Source of the DNA: Pseudomonadota bacterium
Lineage (GTDB): Bacteria > Pseudomonadota > Alphaproteobacteria > Rhizobiales > Rhizobiaceae
Assembly (NCBI GenBank): GCA_039198355.1
Contig: JBCCTO010000012.1
Coordinates: 8,621 to 72,620 of the forward strand
Direction of reading: 5' to 3'
Length of the DNA stretch: 64,000 nucleotides
The position numbers and the translations under genes were made by a program. Below are positions 40,101-56,149 of this stretch, one piece after another. Positions within the stretch are counted from its first letter, which is position 1. Each line of letters starts with the position of its first letter. Below the pieces are notes generated by a model. That model searched no databases. It was not told the DNA's origin and saw nothing but the letters and a program-made list of their open reading frames with translations.

Positions 40101-43100
40101 TGGTGGATGACGGGCCTTTCACACTGGACGAAGACACCCCTTTCCAGGCGGCTGCGGTGAACTTTTTGTTCAATGATAGCGACTTTGAGGGCGATGCGCT
40201 TTCCGTTGTGGCGGTTGGCGGCGCGGTGAACGGATCGGTGGTGTTGTCTTCCGGCGGCATCATCACGTTCACGCCTGATCCAAACTATTTCGGCCCCGCC
40301 AGCTTCACCTATGATGTGCGCGATGCTCTGGGCAGTATCAGTACGGGCACGGTGAACCTGATTTACACTTCTGTGAACGATGTGGTGGAGCTTCGCTTGG
40401 ATGGCACGGCGGGTTCAGACCAGCGCCTCACCGCCTACACGGAAAATGATGTGGGGCGTGTGCTGGTGGAGGCGGCTGCCACGCTGGTGGACGTGGATAA
40501 TCCCACTCTCTTCGGGGCAAATGTTACCCTATTCGACGGTAAAGCGGGCGACACCCTAGGTGCCGGGTCCTATGCCGGGCCATTGACCATCACCACTGTA
40601 CCTCCCGCCGGAACACTGGGCGCAGATGGGCTTTTGCAATTGACCATCACCGGGGCCGGCACCCAGTCGGACTATTTAGCTGCGCTGCAAGCAGTCACCT
40701 ATTCGTCCACGTCGGAAAATCCTGACACGTCCACCCGGGCTCTCCAAATCTACATTACTGATGGCATCGATACTTCCGCCCCCGCTGAGGTGCTGGTGGC
40801 CATCACGGCGGTAAACGATGCGCCGGTGGGTGTTGATGATGGTGTGTTTACCTTTGACGAAGACACGGTCATGGAACTGCCGGTGGCTACGCTCACCGCC
40901 AATGATACGGATGCGGAAAATGATCCGCTGACGATCATTGGGGTCAACGCGCCTGTGAACGGTACGGTGTCGCTGGATGCGGATAATGTCATTCGGTTCA
41001 CACCAGCCCCTGCTTATTCTGGCCCGGCCTCGTTTGACTATACCATGCGCGACCCTGCTGGTCTGACCAGTACAGCCACGGTGAACCTGTTTGTGACGGC
41101 CGTGAATGATGCGCCGATCATTGATCTTGATGGGCTTGGCACGCCTGCCACAGGCTTCTCCGCCACCTATGTGGAAAACGCGCCAGCCATCGCCATCGTG
41201 GACCCCACGGTGAGTGTGTTTGATGAAGACCATGGGGCGCTGCAAAGCGCACAGGTGGTACTGACCAATGGTGCGCCCGGTGATGTGCTGGAACTGGGCC
41301 TCGTGCCTGGCACTATCAGCGCCAGCGTCGCGCCGGCTGCGCCTCTCACGAGCGCTGGCACTGTTACCATCACATTTACGGGCAATGCAGCGCTTGCGGA
41401 CTATGAAGCGGCGCTTGCAGCCATCACTTATCGCTCAACCTCCGAAAACCCGGATACGACCGACCGGGTGATCGAAGTGACGGGCTTTGATGGGCAGAAT
41501 AATTCGGCAGTTTCGGTGAGTACGATTTCGATCTCGGCAGTCAATGATGCGCCGGATGCGGTGGACGACGGTACGCCGGTGGCGATCACGCTGCTGGAGG
41601 ACACGCCTTTTGCCTTCAACCCTGTGGCAAGCAATGACACGGATTTTGAAGGGGATGTGCTCACCATAACTGCCATCAACGGCAACCCCATCGCCCTTGG
41701 CGGGAGCGTGACACTGCCGGAAGGGACTGTGGGGCTTGCGAGCGACGGTCAAACGCTGACCTTTGCCCCTGCGCTCAACACGTTTGGTCCCGTACAGTTT
41801 GATTATACCATCACCGATGGCGCACTGACGGACACGGCGACGATCGATCTGAACGTTTTCCCGGTCAACGATGCGCCTATTGCCGTGGATGATGGGCCTG
41901 TGGTGTTGGTGGAAGATGGTTCCGCCACGTTTGACCCCATCACCTCCAACGACAGTGATGTGGAAGGCGACCCACTCTCCATTGCAGAAATTATGGGTCA
42001 GCCCATCGCCTCCGGTGGGACGGTGACGACAGTGTTTGGTGATGTCTCGCTGGGGCTTGATGGCCGCACGCTGACCTTCACGCCCAAAGCCGATTTTGCC
42101 GGTCAGGCTCTCATCACCTACGGCGTAACGGATGGGGCTGATATAGGCACGGCGACCATTACATTCGATGTGACGCCCGTTGACGATCCGCTGGTAATCA
42201 CCGGCAATCCTGGGACCGTCGCGCTGAATGATGGCCAGTTGGTGAACCTTTCCATGGCGGCTTTTGTGACGGATGTGGATGGAGATGCACTCACCTTTGC
42301 AGCCACCGGTTTGCCTACAGGCCTGTTCATCGATGCCTCCACCGGCATTATTTCCGGCCAGGTGGCCGCTGACGCGTCCCAATCCTCGCCGTATGGCGTG
42401 ATGATTACGGTAGGCGACGGCATTTCTTCCACGGAGAGCTTTGGTTTTGCCGTTGAGGTGAGCAATACGGTGCCCATGCCAACAGCCGGGCAGACCGTCA
42501 TCCTGCCTGAGGGAGATGACTTTGCTGTCCCTGTGGCAGATTACTTTGATGATGCCGATGGTGATACGCTCACCTTTGATGCTCAAAACCTCCCCTCATG
42601 GGTGAGTTTCGATGGTGAGATGCTCACGGGTACTGTTCCCGCCGATGCAGCCCTTTTCGGCACAGTGACGATCCAGCTTTTGGCCGATGATGGGCAAGGG
42701 GGCACTGCCAGTGCCGATTTGACGCTTGATCCGCGCAATGTTTCTCCCATCCAAGTGGGCACCCTTGCCGACAAGATTGTGATGGAGGGCGATGCGGTCT
42801 CCATCTCCCTTGACGGTGTGTTTGAAGATGGTGGCAATGACGGGGATGTGCTGGTGAGCAGCGTCACCGGCCTGCCCGATGGCTTGGCCTTCGACGCTGA
42901 TAGCGGCGAAATTTCCGGCACTGTCACCACCCCGTCGCCGACGCCCTATGTGGTCAGTGTCATGGTGACGGACGGGCAGGGCGGTGCGGTGAGCACCACA
43001 TTCTCCATCACCGTCAACGCGCTCCCCATTGAGCAAGTACCCGATGAGCCTTTAAACCCCGTGAACTCAGGGGATCCCGTGGACCGGGGCCCGCAAATCT

Positions 43101-43933
43101 TCAGCGATTTTGTGCTCGAACAGGATGATGCTGAACAGGACAACGGCCAAAATGCGCTGTTTGAGGACTTGGTGAATTTTGAGCCGGAGCAGACGGAAAT
43201 TTCCACCATTGACCCGCTCTCCATCATTTCCATGATCGACCAGATCGCGGGTTTGAACGGCACGACGTCCGTCGAAGAAGGTGGGGCCGTCAATGAAGCG
43301 GTGGACAAAATTCAATCGCTCAATGGTGCTGTGCCACCCTCCAATGGTGCCGGTGGCGATAATGGCAATCCCGCTTTCCAACTGGCCAATTGGGTGGGCA
43401 ACACGTCGAACGGCGTGTCCAATGGGGAGTCCAGCCTCACCTCCAGCTTTGTGGAGCCCGCCACCCTTATTCCCACCAATGATCGGGAAGAAGAGGAGGA
43501 TAAAGAGATCGAGTTGCAGGAAAAGGGCGATACCCGTCTTGCCCGCTTCTCGCTGGCCGCCACAGAGCGGGCTGGCAAACTCTATTTGCAACTCACCAAT
43601 GCCCTGCACGCCACCCGTGACGGCAAACTTGCCAGCGCCGAGGTGACCACCACCGATGGCAAGCCTCTGCCGGACTGGATGAAGGTGATCCGCTCCGATT
43701 TCGTGACGGCTGAACCGCCGGTGGGTCTGGAAAAATTCGCCCTGCGCATTTCGATTGAGCTGGAAAGCGGTGACAAACTATCGAAACTCGTTGTGGTGGA
43801 CGTTGCCACAGGTCAGGTGACGGCGGCGACCGTGAAAGAGGCCATGAGCGTTGATAGCGATGCGCGCGACGCGTTGCGCACCGGCGCTGCGCCTGTCCAG
43901 CAACCCACTGGTGAGCGGGCAAGCGCGGGATAG
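31178..43933 (+). CDS. giant (4,251 aa) surface adhesin-like protein: N-terminal DUF4347, many cadherin-like/tandem-95-type modules, a NIDO-like insert, C-terminal dystroglycan-type (He_PIG) Ig modules
   Basis: A single uninterrupted ORF. The N-terminus has MRALEPRILLDAAA then EIVFIDAGV..HIFSHGAAGALQLG..ILIYGCDFGQG..ADIAASDDLTG..GDWDLE, read as DUF4347. At least 16 VNDAP-type module junctions were counted by eye. LTFAATGLPTGLFIDASTGIISG-type repeats lie near the C-terminus. Confidence 0.88.
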   Translation: MAGRFKSIFKSSPEAVPVPVKEKPLMRALEPRILLDAAAMETYVDFAGRAAHNQLADDFLAEQKGPVDAPAPASDNTVAVDNTGVIEPVAGEAFVTEPLAEEGAAPGGIEREIVFIDAGVQNPDGLIASLQPGVRIVMLDADEDGVLQMASALETGGPYDAVHIFSHGAAGALQLGNGTLNEASISGEYRAALMGIGRSLSEDGDILIYGCDFGQGEQGQRAAGLLAGITGADIAASDDLTGSESLAGDWDLELHLGQVETPAFSAPDWEGILSGYVIEAQGAPVIGHIDGGIVGTAGTTALWANAVSLDDGMGGTTLFDIRATLIGQTQFAATTFETTNVDSPTADDFRVVLTNTGPQDPNGVVPGALVPAEAAVRWQILEAGTDNPAPPDQINILLDDIVGRGGVALSDQVVTVEAQEISRYTVESSNDLDISGDEDGFTISGTTEFADERDQIAIEWESANRFVVVYRSTSLINNFDMAGTDDLSSFSNPDTVEARSVDLNGPSDPGNDYTTTYVNVSSVAEVPGMPETFDVPVSITDLDVEIFDLDNAFIEGATITLTNAQAGDQLNFDTTLLNTLKLSVNSFTIPGAPGNPDQIVVELQNSARISNYLTAIQSITYSNGLADGAFNTGPRFIDVTVSDGVASSSATTTVLVGSAGLGPITGNTVYVADEGGTISATAVTGILGDDRDGNGDDLDVITVTDAMGVALIPEMVMGVSTGYLVNPTDPISGESTLTNGASLRVNMEDGSFTYTPSPFYNGSETFGYQASDGTFSTDGFFTFNIQPVANDVTLTIIGPDPLTDPGTDEDRPTQTISVNASSPDANEQIFYLADSIPVGVVLTDGLNLFRSTDDEREVDITNWNRNALRVLPIENRDDEISITFIATSVEVDGSFTEELEVATFKVNAVADLPTLIVNEARAGIDEDVDLSSIIQPQLFDTDGSEQFTDITISNIPAGSEILVDGISRPIVGGVVSLTPLELPFLVFRPPQTGAIVTYVMQVSATATEVNPNGDVSVLSATQSGIALEVTLDNVSEPVIAVDDTASTFSGQPVTINVLGNDTINDGTPIITQVNGIGIDVPTPVTLAGGEGIVRMDGLGALIFEPSPNFSGDVNFTYTVQDVDFDEDTANVTVSVLPRWLISSNGTVDEDSGTAQAVFTIELEGAIDQGDIITADLTLVDGNTDAADRQSLADAIAVSMAGPPVEEDFSFNGTTLSYSAPDTNYDVVYDPSGGGFVNIQPTGIPVPLGDDGLTQQFLGFNFKFYGETYDRIFISANGYMSFENTTAAIDGETLDGTALGGRTVLAPYWDDLNTTAGSVFVETRFNARGQQEFIVQWHDVTNKQGGAERGTFQAILTAETGEIRYNYLDVDFANAGSDGGTATIGLQSGSGVADEHAHNTPSSVVSGSSLTFTRGAISNPSFTINLDIYDDPNFELAENFALEFSNPSGAALGDTRANVVIDVSDNMAPVAADDVASVSETGTVILQVIDPNPGTTGEAGEDSDAEGHGLELATVEGNLINGTTIIGLAGGSTLTVEPDGTMTYDPNGKFASLAVGETATETITYFVRDEFGEVSLTPGTLTITINGENQTAEVDLDAGTPSVQNTITTDYPPTANAQAILADPAVVVDVDDSDVTGIRLDLGGFVQSGTEFLAVGSASFQINTTPGLPSTQNATIGGVTLEISYNGFDSISLVRDPAGEFTTAEAAAILAAITYENTSTEDTPGLRTVDIRIDDGQALGDPSTVSVMVLGNNVAPNAVDDGDVTPFPVVEDTPTDFPVADLLANDFDTDIGDSITFVSAQDGPDGTVSYDPMAQTITFTPNANFTGPTSFTYTIQDSQLVTATATVFVDVNPVNDAPDVDLNGVDGGTDYAFTFDENDPLTPIVASDATVFDIDSANLTGMDIVMTGGQAGDILWPLTLPGSLTLTAIPPNVESGLISPTTVTLELRGNASPATYDIALKMIRFGSPLEELDETPRVISVTATDGALTSTVATTTITVNNINDEPVANDDSGFELDEDTFIVIPQADLLANDTDIEGDTLSVVSVDNAPIGASVGFNGGGDIVFVPAANQFGPMSFTYTVADGNGGQRVGLVELTVRSVNDATVIDLDSNTVLDGYVGAYTEDAVPAPLVDPTFTITDVDDTFMESATIVLTNGFAGDFINASSVVAPISASFSTPVPLTTDGPLTLTLSGTATRAQYADAIRSLSFRVLTDAPVEADRLFDISLFDGDDSSNVARSLITVTAVNDAPVADDDTLTDSAEDVSRTIQRADLLGNDVDPDIEPVTIVAAVLDDPLHGTLVLNGDESITFTPAGDFFGAVSFTYTIEDAAGLQDTAVATFNVTSVNDLPVIDLDNDPLNGTGFATGYNEDDTVGVAIVDPSVVLQDVDDVQFSSARIVIADAQVGDQLIATGLPGAITANFTPPTLPLTVAQPITVDLIGAASLADYQTALQGLRFLSNSDAPTLVSVTRTINMSVNDGQGDSNLATTTVTITPSNDAPVGATETFTMDEDTTLPLTKAALLFNDVDPDGDVLDISAVGNAVNGAVSLVGSQIFFQADPDFFGTASFDYTVEDPDGISDTVTVTLDVQPINDAPVADLAGSDPLSDGYTDRYVEGDAPLAVADTDVVFSDIDNANLAGLTVTITNGQVGDLLSVGALPPGISVASAPAGPALIPSVVELRLTGAASLADYQAALQAIGYSSASNDPSTIDRSIAITVTDGALSSSPVTTIMEVESVNDAPVSGADGVFTFDEDTNFTIADAALLLNDTDGENNPLTITGVGAAANGTVTLVGGQITFVPNPNYNGPASFEYTVTDGFDPVQGTVNLFVAAVDDPPVFTNGNGYVVRHTEDGASVAIVDAVTTLQDVDTAQLSGANIVLTNGQVGDLLTVGALPGGITASASPAGALTVAQSVTITLSGQADVADYEAALQQITFETGSNAPSETDRVFAITVNDGTTNSAPLNTTVEVRGVNDAPTVVDDGPFTLDEDTPFQAAAVNFLFNDSDFEGDALSVVAVGGAVNGSVVLSSGGIITFTPDPNYFGPASFTYDVRDALGSISTGTVNLIYTSVNDVVELRLDGTAGSDQRLTAYTENDVGRVLVEAAATLVDVDNPTLFGANVTLFDGKAGDTLGAGSYAGPLTITTVPPAGTLGADGLLQLTITGAGTQSDYLAALQAVTYSSTSENPDTSTRALQIYITDGIDTSAPAEVLVAITAVNDAPVGVDDGVFTFDEDTVMELPVATLTANDTDAENDPLTIIGVNAPVNGTVSLDADNVIRFTPAPAYSGPASFDYTMRDPAGLTSTATVNLFVTAVNDAPIIDLDGLGTPATGFSATYVENAPAIAIVDPTVSVFDEDHGALQSAQVVLTNGAPGDVLELGLVPGTISASVAPAAPLTSAGTVTITFTGNAALADYEAALAAITYRSTSENPDTTDRVIEVTGFDGQNNSAVSVSTISISAVNDAPDAVDDGTPVAITLLEDTPFAFNPVASNDTDFEGDVLTITAINGNPIALGGSVTLPEGTVGLASDGQTLTFAPALNTFGPVQFDYTITDGALTDTATIDLNVFPVNDAPIAVDDGPVVLVEDGSATFDPITSNDSDVEGDPLSIAEIMGQPIASGGTVTTVFGDVSLGLDGRTLTFTPKADFAGQALITYGVTDGADIGTATITFDVTPVDDPLVITGNPGTVALNDGQLVNLSMAAFVTDVDGDALTFAATGLPTGLFIDASTGIISGQVAADASQSSPYGVMITVGDGISSTESFGFAVEVSNTVPMPTAGQTVILPEGDDFAVPVADYFDDADGDTLTFDAQNLPSWVSFDGEMLTGTVPADAALFGTVTIQLLADDGQGGTASADLTLDPRNVSPIQVGTLADKIVMEGDAVSISLDGVFEDGGNDGDVLVSSVTGLPDGLAFDADSGEISGTVTTPSPTPYVVSVMVTDGQGGAVSTTFSITVNALPIEQVPDEPLNPVNSGDPVDRGPQIFSDFVLEQDDAEQDNGQNALFEDLVNFEPEQTEISTIDPLSIISMIDQIAGLNGTTSVEEGGAVNEAVDKIQSLNGAVPPSNGAGGDNGNPAFQLANWVGNTSNGVSNGESSLTSSFVEPATLIPTNDREEEEDKEIELQEKGDTRLARFSLAATERAGKLYLQLTNALHATRDGKLASAEVTTTDGKPLPDWMKVIRSDFVTAEPPVGLEKFALRISIELESGDKLSKLVVVDVATGQVTAATVKEAMSVDSDARDALRTGAAPVQQPTGERASAG

Positions 43934-43964
43934 TTACACGCGATCCCATTATGACTGACGTTTG

Positions 43965-43999
43965 AGCGCCCTGCGGTTTTCACCGTGGGGCGCTTTTTC
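43965..43999 (+). terminator. Rho-independent terminator after the adhesin gene
   Basis: AGCGCCCTGCGGTTTTCACCGTGGGGCGCTTTTT, a GC-rich stem followed by a T-run, 32 nt after the stop codon. Confidence 0.65.
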
Positions 44000-44165: not shown

Positions 44166-45914
44166 GTGAAGCGTATCCTTATAATATCGGCCCTGGCGTT
44201 GAGCGTCAGCGCCTGCACCGTCACTCCAAAGCCCCTCACGACGGGTTCCCTGAGCAAATTTGCATCCAACAGCCTGGCGCGGGTGACCGCGGGGCAGCAG
44301 CCTGTCACCAACTCCATCGACCTTTATGAGGCCATGGCGCGGGCGCTGAAATACAATCTCGATTTCCATGTGGAACTCTACAACGAGGCGCTGGCCAGCA
44401 AACAGCTGGAAGCGGCCAGGTTGGATACACTGCCCAATCTGATTGCGTCGGCGGCCTATACGGGGCGCAATAATGACAGCGGTAATCTGGGGTCCTCCGT
44501 ATTCCCAGATCGGGAGAAATTCCAAAACGACATCAATTTGTCGTGGAACATTCTGGACTTCGGCCTGTCCAAAGTGCGGGCCGAGCAGGCTGCGGATGAG
44601 GTGTTGGTGGCGCGGGAAAACCGCCGCAAAATCATCAACCGTGTGATTGAAGATGTGCGCACATCCTATTGGCGCGCCGTTTCGGCCGACCGTTTGGTGG
44701 TTGGACTGCGCCGGTTGGAGGGCCGCACCAAGCGGGCCATGGCCAATGCCAAGGCGCTGGAGGATGAGGGCCAAACTTCACCGCTCACCTCGCTGACCTA
44801 TCAGCGGGAATTGGTGGAAATTCAGCAGCGCATTCAGCGGCTGCAAAAAGACCTGTCACTGGCCAAAATGCAGCTGGCGGCTCTCATGAACATCCGTCCG
44901 GGCGAACACTTTACGCTGGCCCAGCCCGTGCGTCGCGCCACGTCCACCGATCTGGTGATGACGGGCGAGGAAATGGTATTTGCCGCGCTGGAAAACCGGC
45001 CGGAAATTCGTGATATTCAGTATAAGCTGCGCATCAATTCCAAGGAGGCCCGCCGGGCATTCTTGCAAATGCTGCCTAATGCGAACCTGTTCGCCACGGC
45101 CAATTTTGACAGCGACAACTATCTTTATAATTCCAACTGGGTGGGCTGGGGCGCCAAGGCCACTTGGAACCTGCTTTCCATTTTCAAATATCCTGCGCAA
45201 AAGCGGGCCATTGAGGCCCAGTCGGACGTTTTGGACCAGCGGGCGCTGGCGGTGACCATGGCAATCATGACCCAGGTTCACGTCTCCCGCGTGCGCTACC
45301 GCCATTCCAAAAAGCTCTATCTGACAGCGGCCAAGCATTTGCAGGTGCAAAAGCGCATCGTGCAGCAAATTCGCGCCAGCCATGCGGAAGAGCAGGCCAG
45401 CGAGCAGACCTTGATCCGCGAAGAGATGAACACGCTGGCAAGCCAGGTGTCTTCCGATATCGCTTATGCGGACCTGCAAAACGCTTATGCGAATATCTAC
45501 GCCTCCATGGGCATTGACCCCTATGCAGATGATCTGCGCCACAGCCACAGCGTGGAAGAATTGGCGGCAAGCCTGCGCAATGTGTGGATTGAGCGGGGCG
45601 ATAATTCCGGTGCCATCCGCGCCCACCGGTCTGCTAAAGCGCACCGCATAACCGACAGCATGGCCACCCATGGCATTCGCAAGGGCACTGGTGGTCAGCA
45701 CAAGCAAGTGGTGACCGGTTCGGTGAAAGTCGCGCCAACCGGTCAGAGCGGATGGCAGAATTTTGGGAGCCAGGCGGTGCCCGCATCACCCAAGCCACCA
45801 GCCGCCGCAAAGCCCCAAGTGGTCGATGTGCCGGCCAAGAAAAAGGTTGGGTTCTTTGCCTCCCTTGCGCGTGGCGGAGACCGGTCGAGGCCCGTGAGAG
45901 ACGATAACCGCTAG
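44166..45914 (+). CDS. TolC/NodT-family outer-membrane factor lipoprotein with low-complexity C-terminal extension
   Basis: Lipobox MKRILIISALALSVSAC. Two OEP-type repeats (YEAMARALKYNLDF..., AALENRPEIRDIQYKLR...). The basic/Pro-rich tail is about 120 aa. Confidence 0.8.
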   Translation: MKRILIISALALSVSACTVTPKPLTTGSLSKFASNSLARVTAGQQPVTNSIDLYEAMARALKYNLDFHVELYNEALASKQLEAARLDTLPNLIASAAYTGRNNDSGNLGSSVFPDREKFQNDINLSWNILDFGLSKVRAEQAADEVLVARENRRKIINRVIEDVRTSYWRAVSADRLVVGLRRLEGRTKRAMANAKALEDEGQTSPLTSLTYQRELVEIQQRIQRLQKDLSLAKMQLAALMNIRPGEHFTLAQPVRRATSTDLVMTGEEMVFAALENRPEIRDIQYKLRINSKEARRAFLQMLPNANLFATANFDSDNYLYNSNWVGWGAKATWNLLSIFKYPAQKRAIEAQSDVLDQRALAVTMAIMTQVHVSRVRYRHSKKLYLTAAKHLQVQKRIVQQIRASHAEEQASEQTLIREEMNTLASQVSSDIAYADLQNAYANIYASMGIDPYADDLRHSHSVEELAASLRNVWIERGDNSGAIRAHRSAKAHRITDSMATHGIRKGTGGQHKQVVTGSVKVAPTGQSGWQNFGSQAVPASPKPPAAAKPQVVDVPAKKKVGFFASLARGGDRSRPVRDDNR

Positions 45915-46002
45915 GCCCTTTTTAACCGCCGATTAACCCTCCGTTCAGCACACTGGCCCTTGTTTGGGACCTGTCGGGACGGCAGCGAAGAAAGACATTT
46001 TG

Positions 46003-46812
46003 ATGGAAACGCGCACTCTTTTTGCAACGCTTCTTTTGTCCGCAAGCCTTGGCACCTCGTCGGTTTTTGCGCAAAGCGCCGTGCAGGCCGTGGATGGTGG
46101 TACGATTGACCCCATGGTCACCGGTTCGGTGAAAACGCCGGGTGGGTTTGACGCCCGTGGGGTGGTGATGGCCAATGCGGAGATTACGCTGGGGGCTGGC
46201 CTTGCCGCGAAAATCAAGTCCATGCCGTTTAAGGCAGGGGACAGTTTTTACGAAGGCGATCAGCTCGTCTCTTTTGACTGCGCCAAGCAGCAGGCGGAGT
46301 TACGCGGGGCCAAGGCCACGCTGGGCAAAGCAGCCTCTTTCTATTCCGGCAAAAAGCGGCTGTTGAACCGGGGCGCTGCGGGCAAGCAGGAAGTGCGGGA
46401 GGCCGCCGCAGATGTGGCTGCCGCAAAGGCAAACGCCGATGCGCTGGCGGAAACCATCAGCCTTTGCAGCATTGCAGCACCTTTTTCCGGCCGCGTGGTG
46501 GAGCGCCATGCGGAGACCCATGAAATTCCGGCTGCCAATGCGCCCATCATGACCGTTGTTGACGACAGCGCATTGGAATTGGACCTGATCGTCCCCTCCA
46601 CCTGGCTGCGCTGGGTGAAGAAGGGCTCCACCTTCAACTTCTCCGTGGATGAGTTGGGCGCAGGCTTCAACGCCAAGGTGATCCGCATTGGCGCCAAGGT
46701 GGATGCCGTGAGCCAGACGGTGAAACTGACCGGCACGTTTGTGAATAAGCCAGGCAGTGTGCTCGCCGGTATGAGCGGCACAGCCAATTTCAACGCGCCA
46801 GCCTCTAACTAA
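46003..46812 (+). CDS. periplasmic HlyD/MFP-type adaptor (biotinyl-lipoyl plus beta-barrel), signal-peptide form
   Basis: ORF 45964..46812, with the start at ATG 46003 (METRTLFATLLLSASLGTSSVFAQ). Contains SFYEGDQLVSFDC, a coiled-coil hairpin, APFSGRVVERH and VKLTGTF. Confidence 0.75.
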   Translation: METRTLFATLLLSASLGTSSVFAQSAVQAVDGGTIDPMVTGSVKTPGGFDARGVVMANAEITLGAGLAAKIKSMPFKAGDSFYEGDQLVSFDCAKQQAELRGAKATLGKAASFYSGKKRLLNRGAAGKQEVREAAADVAAAKANADALAETISLCSIAAPFSGRVVERHAETHEIPAANAPIMTVVDDSALELDLIVPSTWLRWVKKGSTFNFSVDELGAGFNAKVIRIGAKVDAVSQTVKLTGTFVNKPGSVLAGMSGTANFNAPASN

Positions 46813-46875
46813 ATCTCCCCGCCCGGATTGTAGCAGACCGGGCGGACCACTCCTTGGCCGGGAAGGCAATGCACC

Positions 46876-48402
46876 ATGGTTCAGCACATGCCCCGGCCAA
46901 CCCCCCAAAACCAGCCAAACGCGCATCAGCAAGCCGCTAAACCCTCTGTGAACGGGGCGGATGCGGCGCGGCTCTTGCGCCAAAAGGCCAGTCGCCTTTC
47001 GCAGGCTGGTGGGGCAGGGCAGGCAGCGCCTGCACCCCAAAAGCAAGCGGCTGTCTCTACCAAACCCAAGCCTGCCCGAGAGGCCGATCTGGCCAACGGG
47101 CTTTTGGCGCTGGAGCGGGAAGCGCGTCAGGCGCAGACGGAAGCGGAACTGGGCTATCTCATCGTCAACGGCTCCCGCGTGGGGGTGCAGTACCGCCAAG
47201 CGATCTTGCTCATGCGTTCTGGACCTGGCGGCCATCGGGCGGAGGCGGTCTCTTCGCTCTCCGCCATTGACCGCAATGCCACGTTTATCCGGTGGGTGGA
47301 GCGGCTGGCCAAGGATAAGCTGAATAAGGAAACGATGGCTAAAGTGCTGTCGTTCGACGCCAAGGCGGAAGCGGCTTCCAGTGATCTGGACGCATCGTCT
47401 TACCCGTTTGGGCAGATAGCGCTGCTGCCCCTTCAATTGCGGGACGGCACGGTGTTTGCTCACCTGATGCTCACCCGGGAATCCCAGTGGGATGAGAAGG
47501 CGCTGGTTTCCGCCGCACGGCTTTGCGAGACCTACTCCCATGCGTGGGAAGCACTGACCGGGCCGAAGCGGGCCAAGCGGAAATTGCGCTCTAAGACATT
47601 GCTGTGGACGGCGCTCGGTGTTGGCATTCTGGCCGCCGGATTCTGGCCCACAAAGCTCTCCGTGCTGGCCCCGGCGGAAGTGTCTGCGGCCAATGCCTAT
47701 GTGGTGGCCTCTCCCATCGATGGAACCATTGAGACGGTGGAGGTTGACCCTAATACGAAGGTGACGGCGGGGCAGGTGCTGTTCACCTATAATGACACGG
47801 AATTGCGCAATCAGGTGGAGCTTGCAGGGCAAGCGGTGGGCGTGGCCGAAGCGCGCTATCAGCAGTCGCTGCGCACATCATTTGCCGATCCCAAGGCGAA
47901 GCGGGAATTGGCCATCGTCCAGTCCGAATTGCGGTTGAAGGCGGGGGAATATGATTATGCCCGCGAGTTGCTGGCCAAAACCAAGGTCATGGCCCCCCGC
48001 GATGGGCTGATTATTTTTGCCGACAAGGACACTTGGACGGGCCGCCCCGTTTCCACCGGCGAACGCATCATGCGTATTGCAGACCCGGCGCAGGTGGAGC
48101 TTTCCATCAACCTGCCGGTGGCCGATGCCATCGTGCTGGAAGAGGGCGCAGAGGTTCAGTTGTACCTGGACAGTGACCCGCTGAAGGCCATTGATGCGAA
48201 GCTGGAAAGCGCCTCGTTCCACGCCACCCCGGATGGTGAAAACGTGTTGAGCTACCGCGTGAAAGCCCGCTTTGACGGGGAGAACAATGCCCCCCGTATC
48301 GGACTTCGCGGTACAGCGAAGGTTTACGGCGAAGACGTGACGCTGGCCTATTTCCTCTTCCGCAAACCCCTCGCAGTGATCCGGCAATGGACGGGGCTTT
48401 AA
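46876..48402 (+). CDS. inner-membrane-anchored HlyD-type adaptor with ~230-aa cytoplasmic N-terminal domain
   Basis: Disordered N-terminus, then a globular segment (GYLIVNGSRVGVQYRQAILLMRSG...), TM helix LLWTALGVGILAAGFW, then HlyD blocks (VASPIDGTIETVEVDPNTKVTAGQVLF, VMAPRDGLIIF). Confidence 0.7.
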   Translation: MVQHMPRPTPQNQPNAHQQAAKPSVNGADAARLLRQKASRLSQAGGAGQAAPAPQKQAAVSTKPKPAREADLANGLLALEREARQAQTEAELGYLIVNGSRVGVQYRQAILLMRSGPGGHRAEAVSSLSAIDRNATFIRWVERLAKDKLNKETMAKVLSFDAKAEAASSDLDASSYPFGQIALLPLQLRDGTVFAHLMLTRESQWDEKALVSAARLCETYSHAWEALTGPKRAKRKLRSKTLLWTALGVGILAAGFWPTKLSVLAPAEVSAANAYVVASPIDGTIETVEVDPNTKVTAGQVLFTYNDTELRNQVELAGQAVGVAEARYQQSLRTSFADPKAKRELAIVQSELRLKAGEYDYARELLAKTKVMAPRDGLIIFADKDTWTGRPVSTGERIMRIADPAQVELSINLPVADAIVLEEGAEVQLYLDSDPLKAIDAKLESASFHATPDGENVLSYRVKARFDGENNAPRIGLRGTAKVYGEDVTLAYFLFRKPLAVIRQWTGL

Positions 48403-50540
48403 AGGCGGAGACCAAGGAAGCCGTCCCGCTTCCCATCCTGCGGGATGATTTGGAAATTGTGCCCGCCGCCGCGCAAACCAATGGCGCGCCCGCTTGGGTT
48501 ATCTACGACCCCGTAGCCAATCGCTACTTTGAGATTGGGCGGGAAATTCTGGACATGTTGCTTTTGTGGCGGGTGGGCACGGTGGATGTGCTGATCCGCA
48601 AATTGCGCAGCGAATTCGGCAAGGTGGTGAGTGAAGAGGAAGTGTCGGACACGATGCACTTTCTCATTTCCAATGCGCTGGTGCGGGATATTCCCGGCAA
48701 TGATTATCGCACCATGGCGCAGAAAGAGGCGGAGAAGAAAAAGAGCTGGCTGTCCACGGCCATGCACTCCTACCTCTTCTTTCGCATTCCGCTCTTTCGC
48801 CCGGATCGGTTTTTGCATGCCACATGGCCGCTAGTCTGGCCATTGTTCACGCGAGCGGCGGTCTGGGTTTATGTGCTTATGGGTCTTTTCGGCCTCTATT
48901 TGGTGTCGCGCCAGTGGGACCAGTTTACGGGCACGTTTCAATTTATGATGTCATGGCACGGGGCGGCGCTGTACTTCGCAAGCCTTGTGTTCGTGAAGTC
49001 TATCCACGAATTGGGCCACGCCTATATGGCCGTGCGCTACGGTTTGCGCGTGCCCACCATTGGCATCGCCTTTATGGTGCTGATGCCGGTTCTGTATACG
49101 GATACGTCAGGCGCATGGCGGCTTCCCTCCCGCCGCAAGCGGTTGATGATCGACGGGGCGGGCATTTTCACCGAACTGGCCATGGCCTCCATCGCCACAC
49201 TGATCTGGGTGTTTTTGCCCGACGGGGGCCTGCGCCTTTGCGTGTTTGCTATCGCCACCACGTCTTGGGTCACATCTTTGGTGGTGAACCTGAACCCGCT
49301 CATGCGGTTTGACGGCTATTACATTCTCTCTGACACGCTGGGCTTTGGGAACCTTCAAAACCGGTCCTTCGAGATGGCCCGCTGGCGTATGCGCGAATTG
49401 CTGTTTGGGCTGGGGGAGGCACCGCCAGAGCAATTGTCCACCCGCATGCGGCGCATGGTGATCGTCCACGCCTGGGCCACTTGGATTTACCGCTTCTTCC
49501 TCTTTTTGGGCATCGCACTGCTCGTCTACACGTTTTTCATCAAGATCGTCGGCATACTCTTGTTTGTCGTGGAAATCCTCTGGTTCATCCTCATGCCGTT
49601 GGGGCGGGAGGTGGCCCATTGGTGGAGTATTCGGAGGCAGATTATGGCTGCAAAACGTATTCTTGTAACCGGGTCCGTGATGGCCGGGCTGGTGGTTCTC
49701 TCCATCATTCCCTGGTCCACCCACATCACCGTGCCCTCGCTGATGACGGCCCAACAGGAGCAGCGCCTGTTTGCGCCTTTCCCGGCGCAGGTGGTGACCA
49801 TGAACCTTTCCGAAGGGGCACAGGTGCGCGCAGGGGACGTGCTGGTGGAACTGGCTTCCCCCAAATTGGAGCGGGACCATGCCTTGGCACTGGAGCGCAA
49901 GGCGTTGCTGGAAAATCGTATTGACCGCACCAGCGCCGATGCTGAAGACCGCGCTTCGCTGATCGTGCTGGAAAATGAGTTGAAAGAAGTGCGCGAAGAA
50001 CTGGACGGCTTGGAAAGGGTTCGGGCCAAAATGGTCGTGCGCGCGCCCTTTGATGGCACGCTGTCCGATCTGGACCCGGAATTGCATACGGGTCTTTGGA
50101 TCAACCCCAAGACCCCGCTGGGCATGGTGCGCACGGCGGGTATTAGTCGAATTCGTGGTTATGTGAGTGAACGGGAAGTGTTTCGCTTCAAGGAGGGGGC
50201 TAAGGCCACCTTTATCCCCGACAATCCGGAATTACCCGAGATTGAAGCGCGTGTCGCCAGCGTGGCGGAAGCATCCGCCGAAAAGCTGCGCGAGCCCTAT
50301 TTGGCCATGACCTATGGCGGTTCCATTGCCGTAGCGCAGGGACCGGGCAGCGGTGGCGACAGCAAGGCTTTACGTCCCATGGAGGCGGAATATCCCGTGG
50401 TGTTGGCTCCGGTGAGCGAGACTGCCATGCCCGCCATGGCGGTGCGTGGCGTCACCCGCATCACCGGCAAACCCCGCAGCTTTTACAGCCGTGCAAAACA
50501 GCAAGTGCTGAAAGTATTGGTTAGGGAGATGGGTGTGTAA
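48387..50540 (+). CDS. fusion protein: PqqD/RRE-like N-domain, M50 (site-2-protease) polytopic core, C-terminal HlyD-like periplasmic domain
   Basis: HELGH and NLNPLMRFDGYY (M50 motifs) lie within about 6-8 TM helices. The N-terminus is WVIYDPVANRYFEIGREILDMLLLWRVGTVDVLIRKL..EEEVSDTMHFLISNALV. The C-terminus has LFAPFPAQVVTMNLSEGAQVRAGDVLVEL, a coiled coil, then VRAPFDGTLSDL. It overlaps the previous gene by 16 nt. Confidence 0.8.
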   Translation: MDGALKAETKEAVPLPILRDDLEIVPAAAQTNGAPAWVIYDPVANRYFEIGREILDMLLLWRVGTVDVLIRKLRSEFGKVVSEEEVSDTMHFLISNALVRDIPGNDYRTMAQKEAEKKKSWLSTAMHSYLFFRIPLFRPDRFLHATWPLVWPLFTRAAVWVYVLMGLFGLYLVSRQWDQFTGTFQFMMSWHGAALYFASLVFVKSIHELGHAYMAVRYGLRVPTIGIAFMVLMPVLYTDTSGAWRLPSRRKRLMIDGAGIFTELAMASIATLIWVFLPDGGLRLCVFAIATTSWVTSLVVNLNPLMRFDGYYILSDTLGFGNLQNRSFEMARWRMRELLFGLGEAPPEQLSTRMRRMVIVHAWATWIYRFFLFLGIALLVYTFFIKIVGILLFVVEILWFILMPLGREVAHWWSIRRQIMAAKRILVTGSVMAGLVVLSIIPWSTHITVPSLMTAQQEQRLFAPFPAQVVTMNLSEGAQVRAGDVLVELASPKLERDHALALERKALLENRIDRTSADAEDRASLIVLENELKEVREELDGLERVRAKMVVRAPFDGTLSDLDPELHTGLWINPKTPLGMVRTAGISRIRGYVSEREVFRFKEGAKATFIPDNPELPEIEARVASVAEASAEKLREPYLAMTYGGSIAVAQGPGSGGDSKALRPMEAEYPVVLAPVSETAMPAMAVRGVTRITGKPRSFYSRAKQQVLKVLVREMGV

Positions 50541-50580: not shown

Positions 50581-50691
50581 TGTGCTATTTGGCACCTGGC
50601 AGGACCTACTCCACATCATCATGCTGGCAAAACGTCGCGGTGGCTCTATATTAGTGTTAGCCCTAAATGCCCCCGCCCGATGGAGACCCCC

Positions 50692-51780
50692 ATGGCCAGC
50701 CTTGCCAAATTTGACAGCCAGATCGAACGTACCCGCTCCACCGTGGAGGAGATGCGCGAAAAGATAAAGCAATCCGGCGTGGTGCTGGAAAAGATGGCCA
50801 AGTCAGAAACCATCGGTGAGGCGGATTTCGACATTGAAAACGCCCGCATTCAGGACGTGTTGCGCCAGCAGCAGGTGATGGAGGGCAATATTGCTGATCT
50901 CATCATCGGGCTGGAGGATGCCACCAATGTGTTTGGTTCCGAATTCGAATCCATGAAGTCCTATACGGGCTATGAGAAGTTTATTTCCATCTTCTCCAAA
51001 CAACGTGCCCAGCGCATGCGCACGGACCGGGTGCGCAACATGTCGCTTTCCGGCAATTTGCAGGAATTGCTCACCAAGTCCGACACGATCACGGGCATTT
51101 TGCAGGAGCAGGAGAAAATTCTCACCGAGCGCTACGACCAGTCGGAAAATTCCCTGCGGGAGGTGATCGAGCGGCGCAAGGGCACCATCAACATGCTGGA
51201 AGAAACCCAAAACCGCATCGAAGAACTGAACCCCATGCTGCTGGACTTGGAAAACCAGATTTCCGTGGCCACGGATCAGACCAAGCGGGCGGAACTGGAA
51301 GGCCAGCGCTCCGAAATGGCGACCGAATACAACCAGCTTCAGGCCAAGGAGCAAGAGCTCTTGGCGGAAAGCCAGACGCTGGAGCGCTATACATCCATGT
51401 TCCAGACCTTTGTGGATTCGTTGAATAATCAGAAAGCAGCGCAGGCCACGCTCATCAACAAACTGACCATCGATACCGAGCAACGCATCGTCCTCTACAA
51501 GGCGCTGGAAGACTCATTGAAAACGGCCGCCCAACAGGACGTGGCTCACAAAATCAACACGCTGGGCAATCAGGTGGACACGGCAGCTGAAAGCACCATG
51601 GCTGGCATCGGTGCGGCGGCCCAAAGTCATATTGGCGATCTGCTGGAAATGCATGAGAAAAACATGGTGTCTACGCAAGACATCCAGCGCCGTAAACAAT
51701 TGGCTGATGATGCATTTGCCCGCCGCTTCGCCGAGGTAATGGAGAAGCACAACAAGGCGGATTATGTGGCCCAAAGTTAA
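50692..51780 (+). CDS. all-helical coiled-coil protein, TelA/YaaN-like (tentative)
   Basis: ORF 50680..51780; ATG 50692 is preferred (GGAGA 5 nt upstream). Heptad-rich along its whole length. The segment YEKFISIFSKQRAQRMRTDRVRNMSLSGNLQELLTKSDTITGILQEQEKIL resembles the TelA core as I remember it. Confidence 0.55.
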   Translation: MASLAKFDSQIERTRSTVEEMREKIKQSGVVLEKMAKSETIGEADFDIENARIQDVLRQQQVMEGNIADLIIGLEDATNVFGSEFESMKSYTGYEKFISIFSKQRAQRMRTDRVRNMSLSGNLQELLTKSDTITGILQEQEKILTERYDQSENSLREVIERRKGTINMLEETQNRIEELNPMLLDLENQISVATDQTKRAELEGQRSEMATEYNQLQAKEQELLAESQTLERYTSMFQTFVDSLNNQKAAQATLINKLTIDTEQRIVLYKALEDSLKTAAQQDVAHKINTLGNQVDTAAESTMAGIGAAAQSHIGDLLEMHEKNMVSTQDIQRRKQLADDAFARRFAEVMEKHNKADYVAQS

Positions 51781-51801
51781 TGTAAGCGCCGGGGCCAACG
51801 T

Positions 51802-53001
51802 TTGCGGAATGACCCTGTGAGCGATTTGAAAGAGAAAATGGAAGCTCCAAAGGGGCGTGCGGATAGCGAGGCTGCAGCCGAACGCTATTTCCGCGCCATT
51901 GATGCGGCGCTGGAAGGGTTGGACACCTATTTGGGGGACGAGCAGGAGTCACCTCTCTACAATCACCAACTCACGGGCGCCATTCTGGAAAGCTATATTG
52001 ACCGGATGCGCCAGTCTTTTCGCGCTTGGGAAGACCGGCTGGCCTTTTCCAGCCGGTTTCGCATCAACCGCGCCGAAAGCGGCTATCCCCTTCTTCAGCA
52101 TGTGATGGAGTTGGACAAAGACGCGCGCGATGCCTCCAAACAACTTGCGGCGCTGCCGTCCGCCGACCAGTTGCGCAAGGACATGGTGGATTTCATTCTG
52201 CTGAAGAATAAGTTCCCTGCCGAGGTTCAAAAGACGCTGGCGCGGCGTATGTATCTGGAAGAAGTGGAGGGACGAGAGGTATTTCGCCCCTTCATTCTGC
52301 CCCAGAGCGTGCGCGTTGGGTTTAACGAGAAAAGCAAACGTCCCTTTTATGTGGTTCACTGGGGGGCGTTTGATGGGGCCGCCCATCTGCCCCTCGTTTA
52401 TGTAGCCGTGATCGAAGATTCCTCAGGCACCATGGCCAAACTGCTGCTGGAAGGCGGTAAGTTGAAGGAGGATTTGGATGTTCCTTTTCCGATCGGCGGC
52501 CTGTTGAACCCTGATTTGGCCCACCAGTTCGACGATTTCTGCGAGAAAAACTCTGCCTACGGGCTGACGCTGATGACCATCGCCGACAATATGGACAAGG
52601 ACTTCGAGCACCTGCACCCCACGCAATTGCGCCGCATTGTGATGGGCCCTTTCTATTCAGCCGGTGTCACCAGCCATGGCGGGTTGGTGACCGGAATTCT
52701 CGATCAGGTCCATAATACGAAAAACGCCTGGATGCTCACATGGACCCAGCAGGAGCTCTATTCCATCTCGGAAACCCCCGCGAAATGGGGCTTGTTTTCC
52801 TCAACACCCGCGCGCCAGACTTACCATATCGAAACCGGCGATCTGGAAGCCGTGCGACAGGGCGTGAGTGCCTATGAACGCCACGCTCTGGTGCCACACG
52901 AGGCCTATCAGGCCATCTATGCCAGTGGGAAACGGGATGCGGTTTTTGGGGGGTACAAGACCCATGTCGTGAGCGGGCGGCAGGTGTTGCGGGACTTTTG
53001 A
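51802..53001 (+). CDS. hypothetical protein (~390-399 aa), family not recognised
   Basis: Long ORF with the same strand and composition as its neighbours. TTG 51802 is in the track; GTG 51817 and ATG 51838 are alternative starts. Confidence 0.6.
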   Translation: MRNDPVSDLKEKMEAPKGRADSEAAAERYFRAIDAALEGLDTYLGDEQESPLYNHQLTGAILESYIDRMRQSFRAWEDRLAFSSRFRINRAESGYPLLQHVMELDKDARDASKQLAALPSADQLRKDMVDFILLKNKFPAEVQKTLARRMYLEEVEGREVFRPFILPQSVRVGFNEKSKRPFYVVHWGAFDGAAHLPLVYVAVIEDSSGTMAKLLLEGGKLKEDLDVPFPIGGLLNPDLAHQFDDFCEKNSAYGLTLMTIADNMDKDFEHLHPTQLRRIVMGPFYSAGVTSHGGLVTGILDQVHNTKNAWMLTWTQQELYSISETPAKWGLFSSTPARQTYHIETGDLEAVRQGVSAYERHALVPHEAYQAIYASGKRDAVFGGYKTHVVSGRQVLRDF

Positions 53002-53052
53002 GGGTGGTACCGTTCCTGTTTTTTCCTATGTCAAGGATTGAAGGAGAGTGAC

Positions 53053-53238
53053 ATGAGCTTTGAAGGTGAGATCGATAAAGACAACTGGGATGAGTATCGT
53101 GCTCTGGAAAAACAGGTCTCCGAGCGCAACATGCGAAGGTCTGCTGCTTACCGAGACTGGCATGACTGGGCAAGACTTGGCGTTCTCACCTGCGTTGCGT
53201 TCATAGTCATAATTCTCGCTGACTGGTTGTTGAATTAA
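53053..53238 (+). CDS. tail-anchored microprotein 1 (61 aa: acidic/charged N-part plus C-terminal TM)
   Basis: AAGGAG SD lies 7 nt before ATG 53053 (the track ORF starts at TTG 53038). Sequence is MSFEGEIDKDNWDEYRALEKQV...LGVLTCVAFIVIILADWLL. The segment is more AT-rich than its flanks. Confidence 0.5.
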   Translation: MSFEGEIDKDNWDEYRALEKQVSERNMRRSAAYRDWHDWARLGVLTCVAFIVIILADWLLN

Positions 53239-53424
53239 GTGGACTACACTGACGATGATCTGGACGATGAGCTCAAGCGTCGAAAAATTTATGAAAGTCG
53301 AGCTTTAGCGGACAAATACAGGGCAGAAACCGAATATATTCGCGCTCAAACCAAATATTATGCCGTATTTATTGCAACTGGCTTGGCAGCCGCTGTTCTA
53401 GCTTTCGTGAAATTGGTTCTTTGA
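53239..53424 (+). CDS. tail-anchored microprotein 2 (61 aa, same architecture)
   Basis: The GTG start comes immediately after the previous TAA. Sequence is DYTDDDLDDELKRRKIYES...YYAVFIATGLAAAVLAFVKLVL. Its stop lies 1 nt before the AAA+ ATG. Confidence 0.45.
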   Translation: MDYTDDDLDDELKRRKIYESRALADKYRAETEYIRAQTKYYAVFIATGLAAAVLAFVKLVL

Positions 53425-53425
53425 T

Positions 53426-55330: not shown

Positions 55331-55441
55331 CTTTAGGGCTTATCCAACAAGCGCTTCGAACTCACTTCAAGTCTCATCGGGGTCTGGTATTGGTAACACT
55401 TCCTTTTTCAGCCCCACTTGCCTGTCCCAGATTTGTGGAAG

Positions 55442-56149
55442 TTAGATGAGTTCCCAGGACCAGCCGAGATACGAACCGTAATCCCAGTAATACGCCAATT
55501 GTGCGTACCAACCGACGTGCCATCCAACCGTCCATCCCACGTGCCAACTGACGTTCCAGCCGTAAGCCCAGCCCTCATACCAAGCCCAACTCCAGCCCCA
55601 TCTCCAACTGGGTGCTTCGCCATAGATGCTGCGGGAAGTGTCTAGGTAGTAAGTATATTCGTATGCATAATAGTTGCCGTAGTAATAGCCCACATTCCAT
55701 CCCAGGTTCCAGCCGACGTGCCAGCCCACGTTCCAACCGTAGCTCCAACCTGTAGAGTAGCTGTCTTGGTGCCAACCGTACTGCCAGCCAAGAACATAAG
55801 TCCAGCTTTCAAAATTGGTTGTTTGAACTTGTAATACGTAATCAGACTCAGCTACTGCGAATGCGTCTACTGCAATATACACAGTTTGTGCGCCAGTAAA
55901 CTCAACGGTCATCCCTTCGCTGGCAGCGCCTCTTTGCGTGCCAGAACTTTTAAGCACGTATTCATCATCGTAGACGTAGAGATCTAGATCCTCGTATAGG
56001 CGCTGCAACGTTATGGAGATAATCCCGCGCCCGGACACATCGATTGAAAAGTAATCCACCGGATCAAACAAATCGACGCGATCTTCCACAATCCCATAGT
56101 CGTTTGGTAGTGGTATGGGACGGGCTGTTGCGAAAGAGTTGTCGGACAT
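55442..56149 (-). CDS. PPC (pre-peptidase C-terminal)-like domain fused to an extreme Trp/Gly/Tyr-rich tetrapeptide-repeat region
   Basis: ORF 55442..56206 (TTG); ATG 56149 (MSDNSF) is preferred. The N-terminal half has DPVDYFSIDVSGRGIISITL...DLDLYVYDD..., which is PPC-like. The C-terminal 124 aa hold 22 Trp (hand count) in GWxVGW-type repeats (GWSYGWNVGWHVGWNLGWNVG ... GWAYGWNVSWHVGWTVGWHVGW). Confidence 0.7.
   Translation of the reverse strand: MSDNSFATARPIPLPNDYGIVEDRVDLFDPVDYFSIDVSGRGIISITLQRLYEDLDLYVYDDEYVLKSSGTQRGAASEGMTVEFTGAQTVYIAVDAFAVAESDYVLQVQTTNFESWTYVLGWQYGWHQDSYSTGWSYGWNVGWHVGWNLGWNVGYYYGNYYAYEYTYYLDTSRSIYGEAPSWRWGWSWAWYEGWAYGWNVSWHVGWTVGWHVGWYAQLAYYWDYGSYLGWSWELI

Follow-up and report, generated by a model that had tools for sequence, protein, structure and literature searches.

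A TolC-type gene cluster built around an RRE–site-2 protease–adaptor fusion, and its pairing with giant adhesins that carry a LEPR-XLL leader

In the peptidase-containing ATP-binding cassette (ABC) transporters, or PCATs, a cytoplasm-facing peptidase within the inner-membrane part of a tripartite exporter removes the N-terminal leader of the cargo at export. Type I systems such as LapA/LapBCE, SiiE/SiiCDF and HlyBD-TolC combine a TolC-family outer-membrane factor (OMF) with membrane-anchored adaptors that carry cytoplasmic N-terminal domains, and the Lap system also includes LapG, a periplasmic cysteine protease, and LapD, a GGDEF-EAL receptor. The peptidase of the daptide systems is a RiPP (ribosomally synthesised and post-translationally modified peptide) recognition element (RRE) fused N-terminally to an intramembrane site-2 protease (S2P), and it removes the leader (bioRxiv 10.1101/2023.03.08.531785). 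The LEPR-XLL proteins include the largest known in bacteria, at up to 36,806 amino acids (aa). According to a 2026 study, LEPR-XLL giants lack known transport signals, and the sole functional statement on these proteins found in a literature search concerns the giants of Chlorobium chlorochromatii. The present work deals with a four-gene cluster at positions 44166–50540 of a 64-kb stretch of DNA from an alphaproteobacterium of the Rhizobiaceae (GenBank assembly GCA_039198355.1, contig JBCCTO010000012.1, positions 8,621 to 72,620). The whole stretch is referred to here as the window, and coordinates are window positions unless another locus is named. The cluster encodes a TolC-like lipoprotein, two HlyD-type adaptors and a protein in which an RRE-like domain, an S2P core and a third adaptor domain are fused, and it lies beside the gene of a giant adhesin that begins with a LEPR-XLL leader.

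The four genes and the adhesin probably constitute a leader-guided, TolC-dependent apparatus for the export or processing of a giant surface protein, a reading that draws on the parts themselves, their predicted folds, a conserved catalytic site and a genomic coupling to leader-bearing giants. In the proposed scheme the RRE domain of the fusion would bind the adhesin leader in the cytoplasm. The S2P core, whose active site is predicted to lie on the cytoplasmic side of the membrane, would then cut the leader, probably in the run of small residues that follows F-D-A-A, a job equivalent to that of the daptide peptidase MpaP, which has the same RRE-S2P architecture. The C-terminal adaptor domain of the fusion, the GAF-anchored adaptor and the soluble adaptor may together make up a mixed ring to which the TolC-like lipoprotein is docked; the resulting adaptor/TolC-like duct would be the way out for the adhesin. 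The cytoplasmic GAF domain is suggested to gate or tune the process in response to a small ligand. As proposed, the system works like a peptidase-containing bacteriocin exporter or a type I giant-adhesin system, yet it is a member of neither, since an ABC transporter and a C-terminal signal were looked for and not found.

As with the type I systems, the OMF belongs to the TolC family, the adaptors are anchored in the membrane with cytoplasmic N-terminal domains, and a repetitive giant substrate without a Sec signal is encoded next door. Unlike those systems, there is no ABC transporter, three different adaptor proteins take the place of one, and the substrate lacks RTX repeats and a C-terminal signal, its conserved signal being N-terminal and paired with a protease. 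The resemblance to PCATs lies in the recognition and removal of a leader, here proposed, by the inner-membrane component itself, although the present protein would use a zinc S2P and an RRE rather than a C39 cysteine peptidase, has no ABC domains and would serve a giant cargo. The LapA/LapG/LapD arrangement likewise brings together an N-terminal element of the adhesin, a dedicated protease and a cytoplasmic domain for ligand sensing on an envelope protein, but here the protease lies within the membrane and the putative sensor, a GAF domain, is part of an adaptor; no LapG-type protease or LapD-type receptor was found among the cluster genes with Pfam or NCBIfam. The closest architectural relative is the daptide peptidase MpaP/DapP, in which an N-terminal RRE is followed by an S2P core with HExxH and which is similarly placed to recognise and cut a leader at the membrane. 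The fusion differs in possessing an additional transmembrane (TM) helix and a 270-aa periplasmic adaptor domain, and its setting differs as well. The module occurs in Gram-negative bacteria alongside an OMF, its neighbours are adaptors and a giant adhesin rather than a conserved short precursor and tailoring enzymes, and its presumed substrates run from 1,400 to more than 4,400 aa in complete examples, as against a peptide of ~30 aa.

In agreement with the statement in a sequence-only reading of the window that no experimental characterisation of this architecture was known, no published description of an RRE-S2P-adaptor/OMF/adhesin system was found in the literature. For none of the four proteins does NCBIfam release 20 offer a specific model, and annotation pipelines name them generic efflux adaptors.

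All four genes of the cluster lie on the + strand, at the places given in the sequence-only reading. The first (44166–45914) encodes a TolC-like OMF lipoprotein of 582 aa, with Pfam OEP matching in two stretches (1.6e-36) and a lipobox, LSVSAC. The ~110-aa tail past its two OEP repeats (residues ~470–582, 45576–45914) is of low complexity and rich in Lys, Pro and Ala; the Escherichia coli OMF homolog is also long, at 639 aa. The second gene (46003–46812) specifies a short periplasmic adaptor, 269 aa from its ATG, although the longest open reading frame (ORF) begins at 45964. It matches HlyD_3 (7.8e-15) and HlyD_D23, exceeds the NCBIfam RND_mfp cutoff (104 bits against 94.9) and starts with a cleavable signal peptide, METRTLFATLLLSASLGTSSVFA. 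The long adaptor (46876–48402, 508 aa; HlyD_3 1.1e-17) has its adaptor domains at residues 262–484, preceded by a basic stretch and hydrophobic helix at ~232–258. The fourth gene (48387–50540), which overlaps the third by 16 nt (48387–48402), encodes the 717-aa fusion, with matches to Pfam M50 and HlyD_3 and to the NCBIfam model daptide_HExxH (1.3e-45). The earlier descriptions of an OMF lipoprotein, a signal-peptide adaptor and a TM-anchored adaptor with a ~230-aa cytoplasmic domain are thus all borne out. The profile matches, together with conservation over hundreds of genomes, rule out a chance assemblage.

The membrane core of the fusion occupies residues ~140–445 (48804–49721, + strand) and is read as an S2P/M50 protease from a Pfam M50 match just below its cutoff and from the two zinc-site motifs of an S2P. 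These are HELGH at residues 207–211 (49005–49019, + strand) and NLNPLMRFDGYY at residues 301–312 on the same strand, of which NLNPLMRFDG is encoded at 49287–49316. Among 80 distinct homologs, at least 97% keep each of the residues H207, E208, H211, N301, N303, P304, D309 and G310. This agrees with the intramembrane M50 protease core recognised in the sequence-only reading, and with the HExxH and NxxPxxxxDG residues so kept, the protease is expected to be active. The membrane-embedded residues K204, E263, K386 and E396 are equally conserved in the same homologs. The site-2 protease of M. jannaschii, mjS2P (3b4r), matches the fusion profile at the HExxH helix (E=0.0045), and PF02163 is precomputed for most fusion homologs. 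The NCBIfam model for the daptide biosynthesis intramembrane metalloprotease (NF041824) spans residues 36–397 and so takes in both the N-terminal domain and the membrane core. From hydropathy and the distribution of Arg and Lys, the topology is inferred to comprise a cytoplasmic N-domain, seven TM helices with one re-entrant segment, and a periplasmic C-terminal domain. Both zinc-site motifs would then lie at the cytoplasmic ends of out-to-in helices, like those of the RseP-type S2Ps.

The periplasmic part (residues 446–717, 49722–50537, + strand; HlyD_3 at 550–636) was compared with PDB sequences by means of a profile of 12 homologs, which returned ZneB (6.5e-11), HlyD (5e-10) and MacA. The HlyD match is to the HlyB/D complex 8dck, and the alignment takes in the TM helix and the lipoyl region of the fusion. 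A HlyD-like periplasmic C-terminus had been anticipated from the letters, and these matches uphold it.

At the other end of the protein, an AlphaFold2 model built from 53 sequences gives a predicted local distance difference test score (pLDDT) of ~90 over residues 11–100, with three strands followed by three helices. The nine best PDB matches of this domain in Foldseek are all RREs, among them TbiB1, CteB, a lasso-peptide B1 protein and SkfB, at probabilities of 0.75–0.99 and TM-scores on the target of up to 0.68. TbiB1 with its bound leader peptide is matched at a probability of 0.99 and a TM-score on the target of 0.66–0.68. In the predicted structure, then, residues ~14–100 (48426–48686, + strand) share the RRE fold, and membership of the PqqD family is not claimed. 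The earlier description of this segment as PqqD/RRE-like is supported at the level of the fold. Assignment to PqqD by sequence was tried with Pfam, NCBIfam and a profile against PDB sequences, all of which came back empty, the RRE fold being visible in the predicted structure only. The PGAP annotation pipeline names more distant plasmid homologs of the fusion 'PqqD family peptide modification chaperone'.

The cytoplasmic domain of the long adaptor was treated in the same way. Its N-terminal 230 aa match no Pfam family by sequence profile. An AlphaFold2 model of residues 1–255 has a pLDDT above 93 over residues 70–230, ahead of which the N-terminus is disordered. Foldseek returns 290 PDB matches at E≤1e-3, and the best 50 are almost all GAF-containing proteins, the GAF-type matches including phytochromes, sensor kinases and a cAMP-binding GAF domain; the TM-score to single GAF domains is ~0.65. 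On this modelled fold, the long adaptor would be arranged as a GAF domain (residues ~69–228, 47080–47559, + strand), a hydrophobic TM helix (residues ~241–258, 47596–47649, + strand) and an adaptor. The GAF identity predicted for the cytoplasmic domain was absent from the sequence-only reading and is not visible from the sequence by itself.

The presumed substrate is encoded immediately upstream, at 31178–43933 on the + strand, by a gene whose product was identified with Pfam and NCBIfam. Its longest ORF begins at a GTG codon at 31166 and the protein is 4251 aa from the ATG. It contains 11–12 tandem Big_9, Cadherin_4 and Cadherin_5 repeats together with He_PIG domains. No Sec signal was found in the window adhesin, and none of the type I C-terminal signal models matched it. 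The window adhesin and eight other module-linked adhesins contain no GGxGxD RTX motif, so that the earlier description of a 4,251-aa adhesin without RTX nonapeptides is accurate. What had been overlooked is the LEPR-XLL leader, ALEPRILLDAAAMETYVD, at residues 28–45 from the ATG (31259–31312, + strand), which scores 20.1 bits against a cutoff of 17 for NCBIfam NF012209. The adhesin N-terminus thereby passes the cutoff of the family of LEPR-XLL giants that includes Cag_663 and Cag_665 of Chlorobium chlorochromatii, although at 4251 aa it is far smaller than those proteins (20,647 and 36,806 aa). In the window the motif reads ALEPRILLDAAA, with a basic stretch ahead of it. All 27 of the distinct intact N-termini of giant neighbours have a basic stretch followed by L-x-x-L-E-[PQS]-R-h-h-F-D-A-A-x-A-A-T, and this leader is the putative recognition and cleavage signal of the scheme above.

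In the module neighbours the leader sits ~115–120 residues before the 'SHG' motif of a DUF4347 domain, which in the window adhesin lies at 31514–31975 on the + strand (Pfam PF14252, 4.2e-47). Two residues of DUF4347 are invariant, the His of SHG and the Cys of YGC, and they lie 44 residues apart, a spacing that is fixed in 26 of 27 proteins; the invariant columns of alignment A5 are H72/G73 and C116. The domain shows an alternating strand/helix pattern, and the His/Cys pair recalls the dyad of the caspase/CHAT-type (clan CD) peptidases. DUF4347 could therefore be a self-processing protease. When its profile was run against the PDB, the sole match was an unannotated DUF4347 chain, 9qpe_G (1e-5), and no caspase or CHAT peptidase structure was returned.

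The association between module and adhesin was surveyed from the side of the fusion, whose family is large and unnamed and comprises 3,562 clusters (50% identity) at E≤1e-30, the best 150 being nearly all full-length at ~700 aa. The survey took the best 80 of at least 521 encoding stretches, one genome per species, from Alpha- and Gammaproteobacteria and Nitrospira. With five loci collected earlier this made 85, and their six-frame ORFs were searched with the window proteins. The long adaptor adjoins the fusion in 82 of the 85 loci; 74 contain the short adaptor and 61 the OMF, many of the misses being at contig ends; the OMF adjoins the adaptors in 57 of the 80 survey loci. The four genes thus co-occur across genomes, as the sequence-only reading would have it. 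A giant neighbour was defined as an adhesin-type ORF, or one of at least 1500 aa, within 2 kb of the block, and was scored in those 49 of the 80 loci where at least 3 kb of sequence flanks the block on either side. It is present in 39 of these 49, or in 41 if two divergent ORFs of at least 1000 aa are counted. In 24 loci the giant gene precedes the module on the same strand, in 17 it lies downstream and in eight it is upstream in divergent orientation, and adjacency in three gene orders indicates that the pairing has survived rearrangement.

The reciprocal test started from the adhesin, and 80 metagenomic loci were fetched with an alignment of leader plus DUF4347. The leader is present in 73 of the 80 DUF4347 proteins, and at least one module gene was found in the available flank for 51 of the 73, rising to 31 of 39 where at least 6 kb of non-adhesin flank was available. 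The seven leaderless proteins, which start directly with DUF4347 or with a Sec signal, have no module gene (0/7). The difference between leader-bearing and leaderless proteins gives Fisher p=5e-4 overall and p=0.055 in the flank-restricted subset, which holds only two leaderless cases. Forty Phaeobacter plasmid records contain a DUF4347 protein and no fusion. The one such protein that was read has no leader, begins with DUF4347, ends in 13 C-terminal GGxGxD repeats and has no module nearby. DUF4347 itself was considered as the specific partner of the module and was rejected on account of the leaderless DUF4347 proteins of Phaeobacter, of cyanobacteria and of the seven metagenomic loci, all of which lack the module; the partner is hence the leader and not DUF4347. 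Giants with DUF4347 are accordingly of two kinds, one leaderless with RTX repeats, as in a classical type I substrate, and the other with a LEPR-XLL leader, no RTX repeats and a paired module. The label of ELWxxDGT repeat protein is given in annotation to some of the cyanobacterial DUF4347 proteins.

The same five-gene order recurs on plasmids of E. coli, Kosakonia, Burkholderia anthina and Azospirillum, and tblastn places the adhesin N-terminus and the fusion 5–19 kb apart on replicons of Citrobacter, Hafnia, Tistrella and Cupriavidus. The five-gene cassette of E. coli, found in 24 of 5,426 complete genomes of the species, has insertion sequences (IS) at its borders whether it sits on a 69-kb IncF plasmid or in a chromosome. 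The full annotations of the E. coli island and of the IncF plasmid contain no exporter gene. The make-up of this IS-bounded cassette argues against the need for a dedicated pump beyond the five genes.

Genes annotated as 'tail fiber protein' (~205–228 aa) flank the cassette in three copies in Kosakonia, two in Azospirillum and one in Burkholderia anthina (L090 22128–24235; L087 6–1865; L091 5445–6059), and the Kosakonia copies have lipoprotein-like signals. On the 35.8-kb plasmid pMSR-1 of Magnetospirillum gryphiswaldense (L092 9520–17106), the order OMF, adaptor, adaptor, fusion follows a 492-aa ELWxxDGT-repeat protein, and there is no giant. This protein is leaderless at its annotated start; it could be a remnant left by truncation, or else another cargo.

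The absence of a pump from the cluster was a central claim of the sequence-only reading, and it holds well beyond the four genes. Pfam found no ABC_tran/ABC_membrane, RND or MFS exporter among the large ORFs scanned in the 64 kb, and no energised transporter of the RND, MFS, ABC or PET type is present in the cluster or window or conserved in the related loci. Six-frame translation revealed an ABC-like ORF (Walker A plus LSGGQ) in 12 of the 85 loci; eight of these were scanned with Pfam and two are of the exporter type. No conserved pump emerged from these scans, and neither an ATPase nor a known pump accompanies the system.

Several observations weigh against an export or processing apparatus of this kind. 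A 4251-aa chain must cross the inner membrane, and the cassette is without a known translocase or energy source. No S2P enzyme is known to form a protein-conducting channel, and an unlinked ABC transporter or another host factor could be the driver. Some of the assignments are also less than firm. The Pfam M50 score of the fusion (PF02163) is 25.4 against a cutoff of 27.2, and the daptide model, at 156.2 bits, falls below its curated cutoff of 300. The Foldseek E-values for the RRE matches are weak, the best being 0.04. Neither PqqD (PF05402) nor any NCBIfam model matched residues 1–138 of the fusion even at E≤10, and a profile of 50 fusion homologs run against all PDB sequences returned no PqqD or RRE chain. 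In the window, a terminator-like hairpin at 43964–43995 on the + strand (14-bp stem with nine G-C pairs, then a T run) separates the adhesin gene from the module, so that the two do not form one transcript here. The hairpin lies inside the 232-bp gap between adhesin and cluster, and the sequence-only reading, which had the cluster starting about 230 bp past the adhesin terminator, was right about a terminator-like element and wrong about the distance, which is ~170 bp from the hairpin. Moreover, eight of the 49 well-flanked loci have the two adaptors and the fusion as a core but no giant beside them, and an OMF was not detected in five of these. In loci L004, L020, L032, L056 and L057 (fusion at ~10001–12100) only the short adaptor, the long adaptor and the fusion are present, and neither an OMF nor a giant gene occurs within 10 kb; in such three-gene loci the missing parts may be encoded elsewhere, or the core may have another use. 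Finally, a genome note (PMC10868602) describes one LEPR-XLL protein that ends in RTX and serralysin domains as well, which means that the leader does not always have to stand in for a type I signal.

A more ambitious form of the proposal would see in the module an ABC-independent secretion pathway of Gram-negative bacteria that is directed by an N-terminal leader, with the RRE capturing the leader of a nascent or unfolded giant, the S2P acting as the 'signal peptidase', the three adaptors and the TolC-like channel taking up the chain, and LEPR-XLL giants in general, the largest known bacterial proteins among them, as its clients. This is a speculative extension and on balance doubtful. The drive would have to come from co-translational export, from the proton-motive force or from extracellular folding of the repeats rather than from a dedicated ATPase, and the invariant membrane-embedded residues Glu396 and Lys386 of the fusion would be candidates for coupling to the proton-motive force. 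Already in its plainer form, the proposal of a conserved partner machine with a leader-binding domain and a leader-cutting protease would explain both the purpose of the LEPR-XLL motif and the route of these giants to the surface. An RRE would have a role outside natural-product biosynthesis and a site-2 protease a role in secretion, and a TolC/adaptor assembly would be at work with none of the four known pump classes, posing a clear question of energetics. Since the compact, IS-bounded five-gene cassette is carried on plasmids of E. coli, Citrobacter, Hafnia and Kosakonia, the hypothesis can be tested in a standard laboratory host, and the system may bear on plasmid-borne traits of biofilm formation and colonisation.

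Rather unlikely, though the most serious of the alternatives, is a tether-and-release function, in which the adhesin is exported by other means (for example by an unlinked type I ABC transporter, C-terminus first), its leader is held in the cytoplasm by the RRE so that the protein, still threaded through the adaptor/TolC duct, is anchored to the cell, and a GAF-regulated cut by the S2P sets it free. Such an arrangement would correspond in function to the LapA retention module and its partners LapG and LapD. It would account for a leader and a folded DUF4347 at the N-terminus, the position of the retention module in LapA-type adhesins, and for a putative ligand-sensing GAF domain on an adaptor; the energy problem would disappear, and the LEPR-XLL protein with C-terminal RTX repeats (PMC10868602) would fit. 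Genes related to cyclic di-GMP (c-di-GMP) also lie nearby in unrelated hosts. They comprise a gene for an EAL-domain protein in the window (28414–30111, − strand; upstream of the adhesin, on the far side of a thymidine kinase gene, and without conservation in distant loci), a PilZ gene in L005 (7251–7664) directly before the short adaptor, and a diguanylate cyclase gene on the E. coli plasmid NZ_CP081687.1 (8006–9388). Together with the GAF domain, they hint at control by a second messenger. Against a tether, however, no ABC transporter is conserved near the module or present in the IS-bounded E. coli cassette, the neighbouring adhesins have neither RTX repeats nor matches to type I C-terminal signals, and an OMF with three adaptors exceeds what a tether would need.

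S2P proteases classically act in signalling, and it might be supposed that the present one cleaves some other membrane protein, such as a signalling or anti-sigma factor, or that the adaptors and OMF serve an unlinked small-molecule pump, the adhesin being merely co-regulated. The eight well-flanked loci without a giant neighbour and the 'efflux adaptor' labels of the annotation pipelines are in line with this view, which is nonetheless improbable. It leaves unexplained the RRE fold on the protease, the pairing with leader-bearing and not with leaderless DUF4347 proteins, an adjacency maintained through three gene orders and across phyla, and the lack of a regulator or pump in the mobile E. 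coli cassette. Least credible of all is a cleavage-coupled exporter for a nearby RiPP or bacteriocin peptide beside which the adhesin would lie by coincidence, the first of two hypotheses put forward in the sequence-only reading. RRE-S2P enzymes are indeed known as RiPP leader peptidases, and adaptor and OMF sets accompany bacteriocin exporters. The small ORFs of the intergenic regions, on the other hand, overlap the hairpin and are kept only in relatives of 96% identity, so that no precursor was found there, just as the sequence-only reading had reported none that was convincing. No conserved short ORF exists in these regions, tailoring enzymes are absent, and over 80 genomic and 80 metagenomic loci the sole conserved partner is the giant leader-bearing protein. 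The second of those hypotheses, an export or processing route for the neighbouring adhesin, is strongly supported by the comparative counts (a giant neighbour in 39–41 of 49 loci, and a module beside leader-bearing and not leaderless proteins), and the two in effect merge, because the recognised 'peptide' is most likely the adhesin's own LEPR-XLL leader.

In one relative of 69% identity, on a 4.45-Mb contig (L003 3555–6951), a nest of insertion sequences separates a truncated adhesin gene from what is left of the OMF gene, a 170-aa remnant, and the system appears to be inactivated.

Downstream of the cluster in the window, the region 50680–59633 encodes a 366-aa coiled-coil protein, a 399-aa protein without a family, an AAA ATPase (53426–55330), DUF6638 and DUF2333. 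The AAA protein is the sole ATPase nearby, 2.9 kb beyond the cluster. This set was considered as a possible part of the system and was rejected, as it is syntenic only at identities of at least 54%. It follows the module in every relative at that level (an Ahrensia/Rhizobiaceae-like clade) and is absent beside the module in all other lineages, so it is probably a separate, lineage-specific cluster. The other large ORFs scanned in the window are housekeeping or unrelated genes according to Pfam, for example those for methylmalonyl-CoA mutase, propionyl-CoA carboxylase and anthranilate synthase. The segment 14001–16000 has a G+C content of 0.47, compared with 0.55–0.61 elsewhere in the window. 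A 447-aa ORF in this segment (13972–15315) matched no Pfam family and may have been acquired recently.

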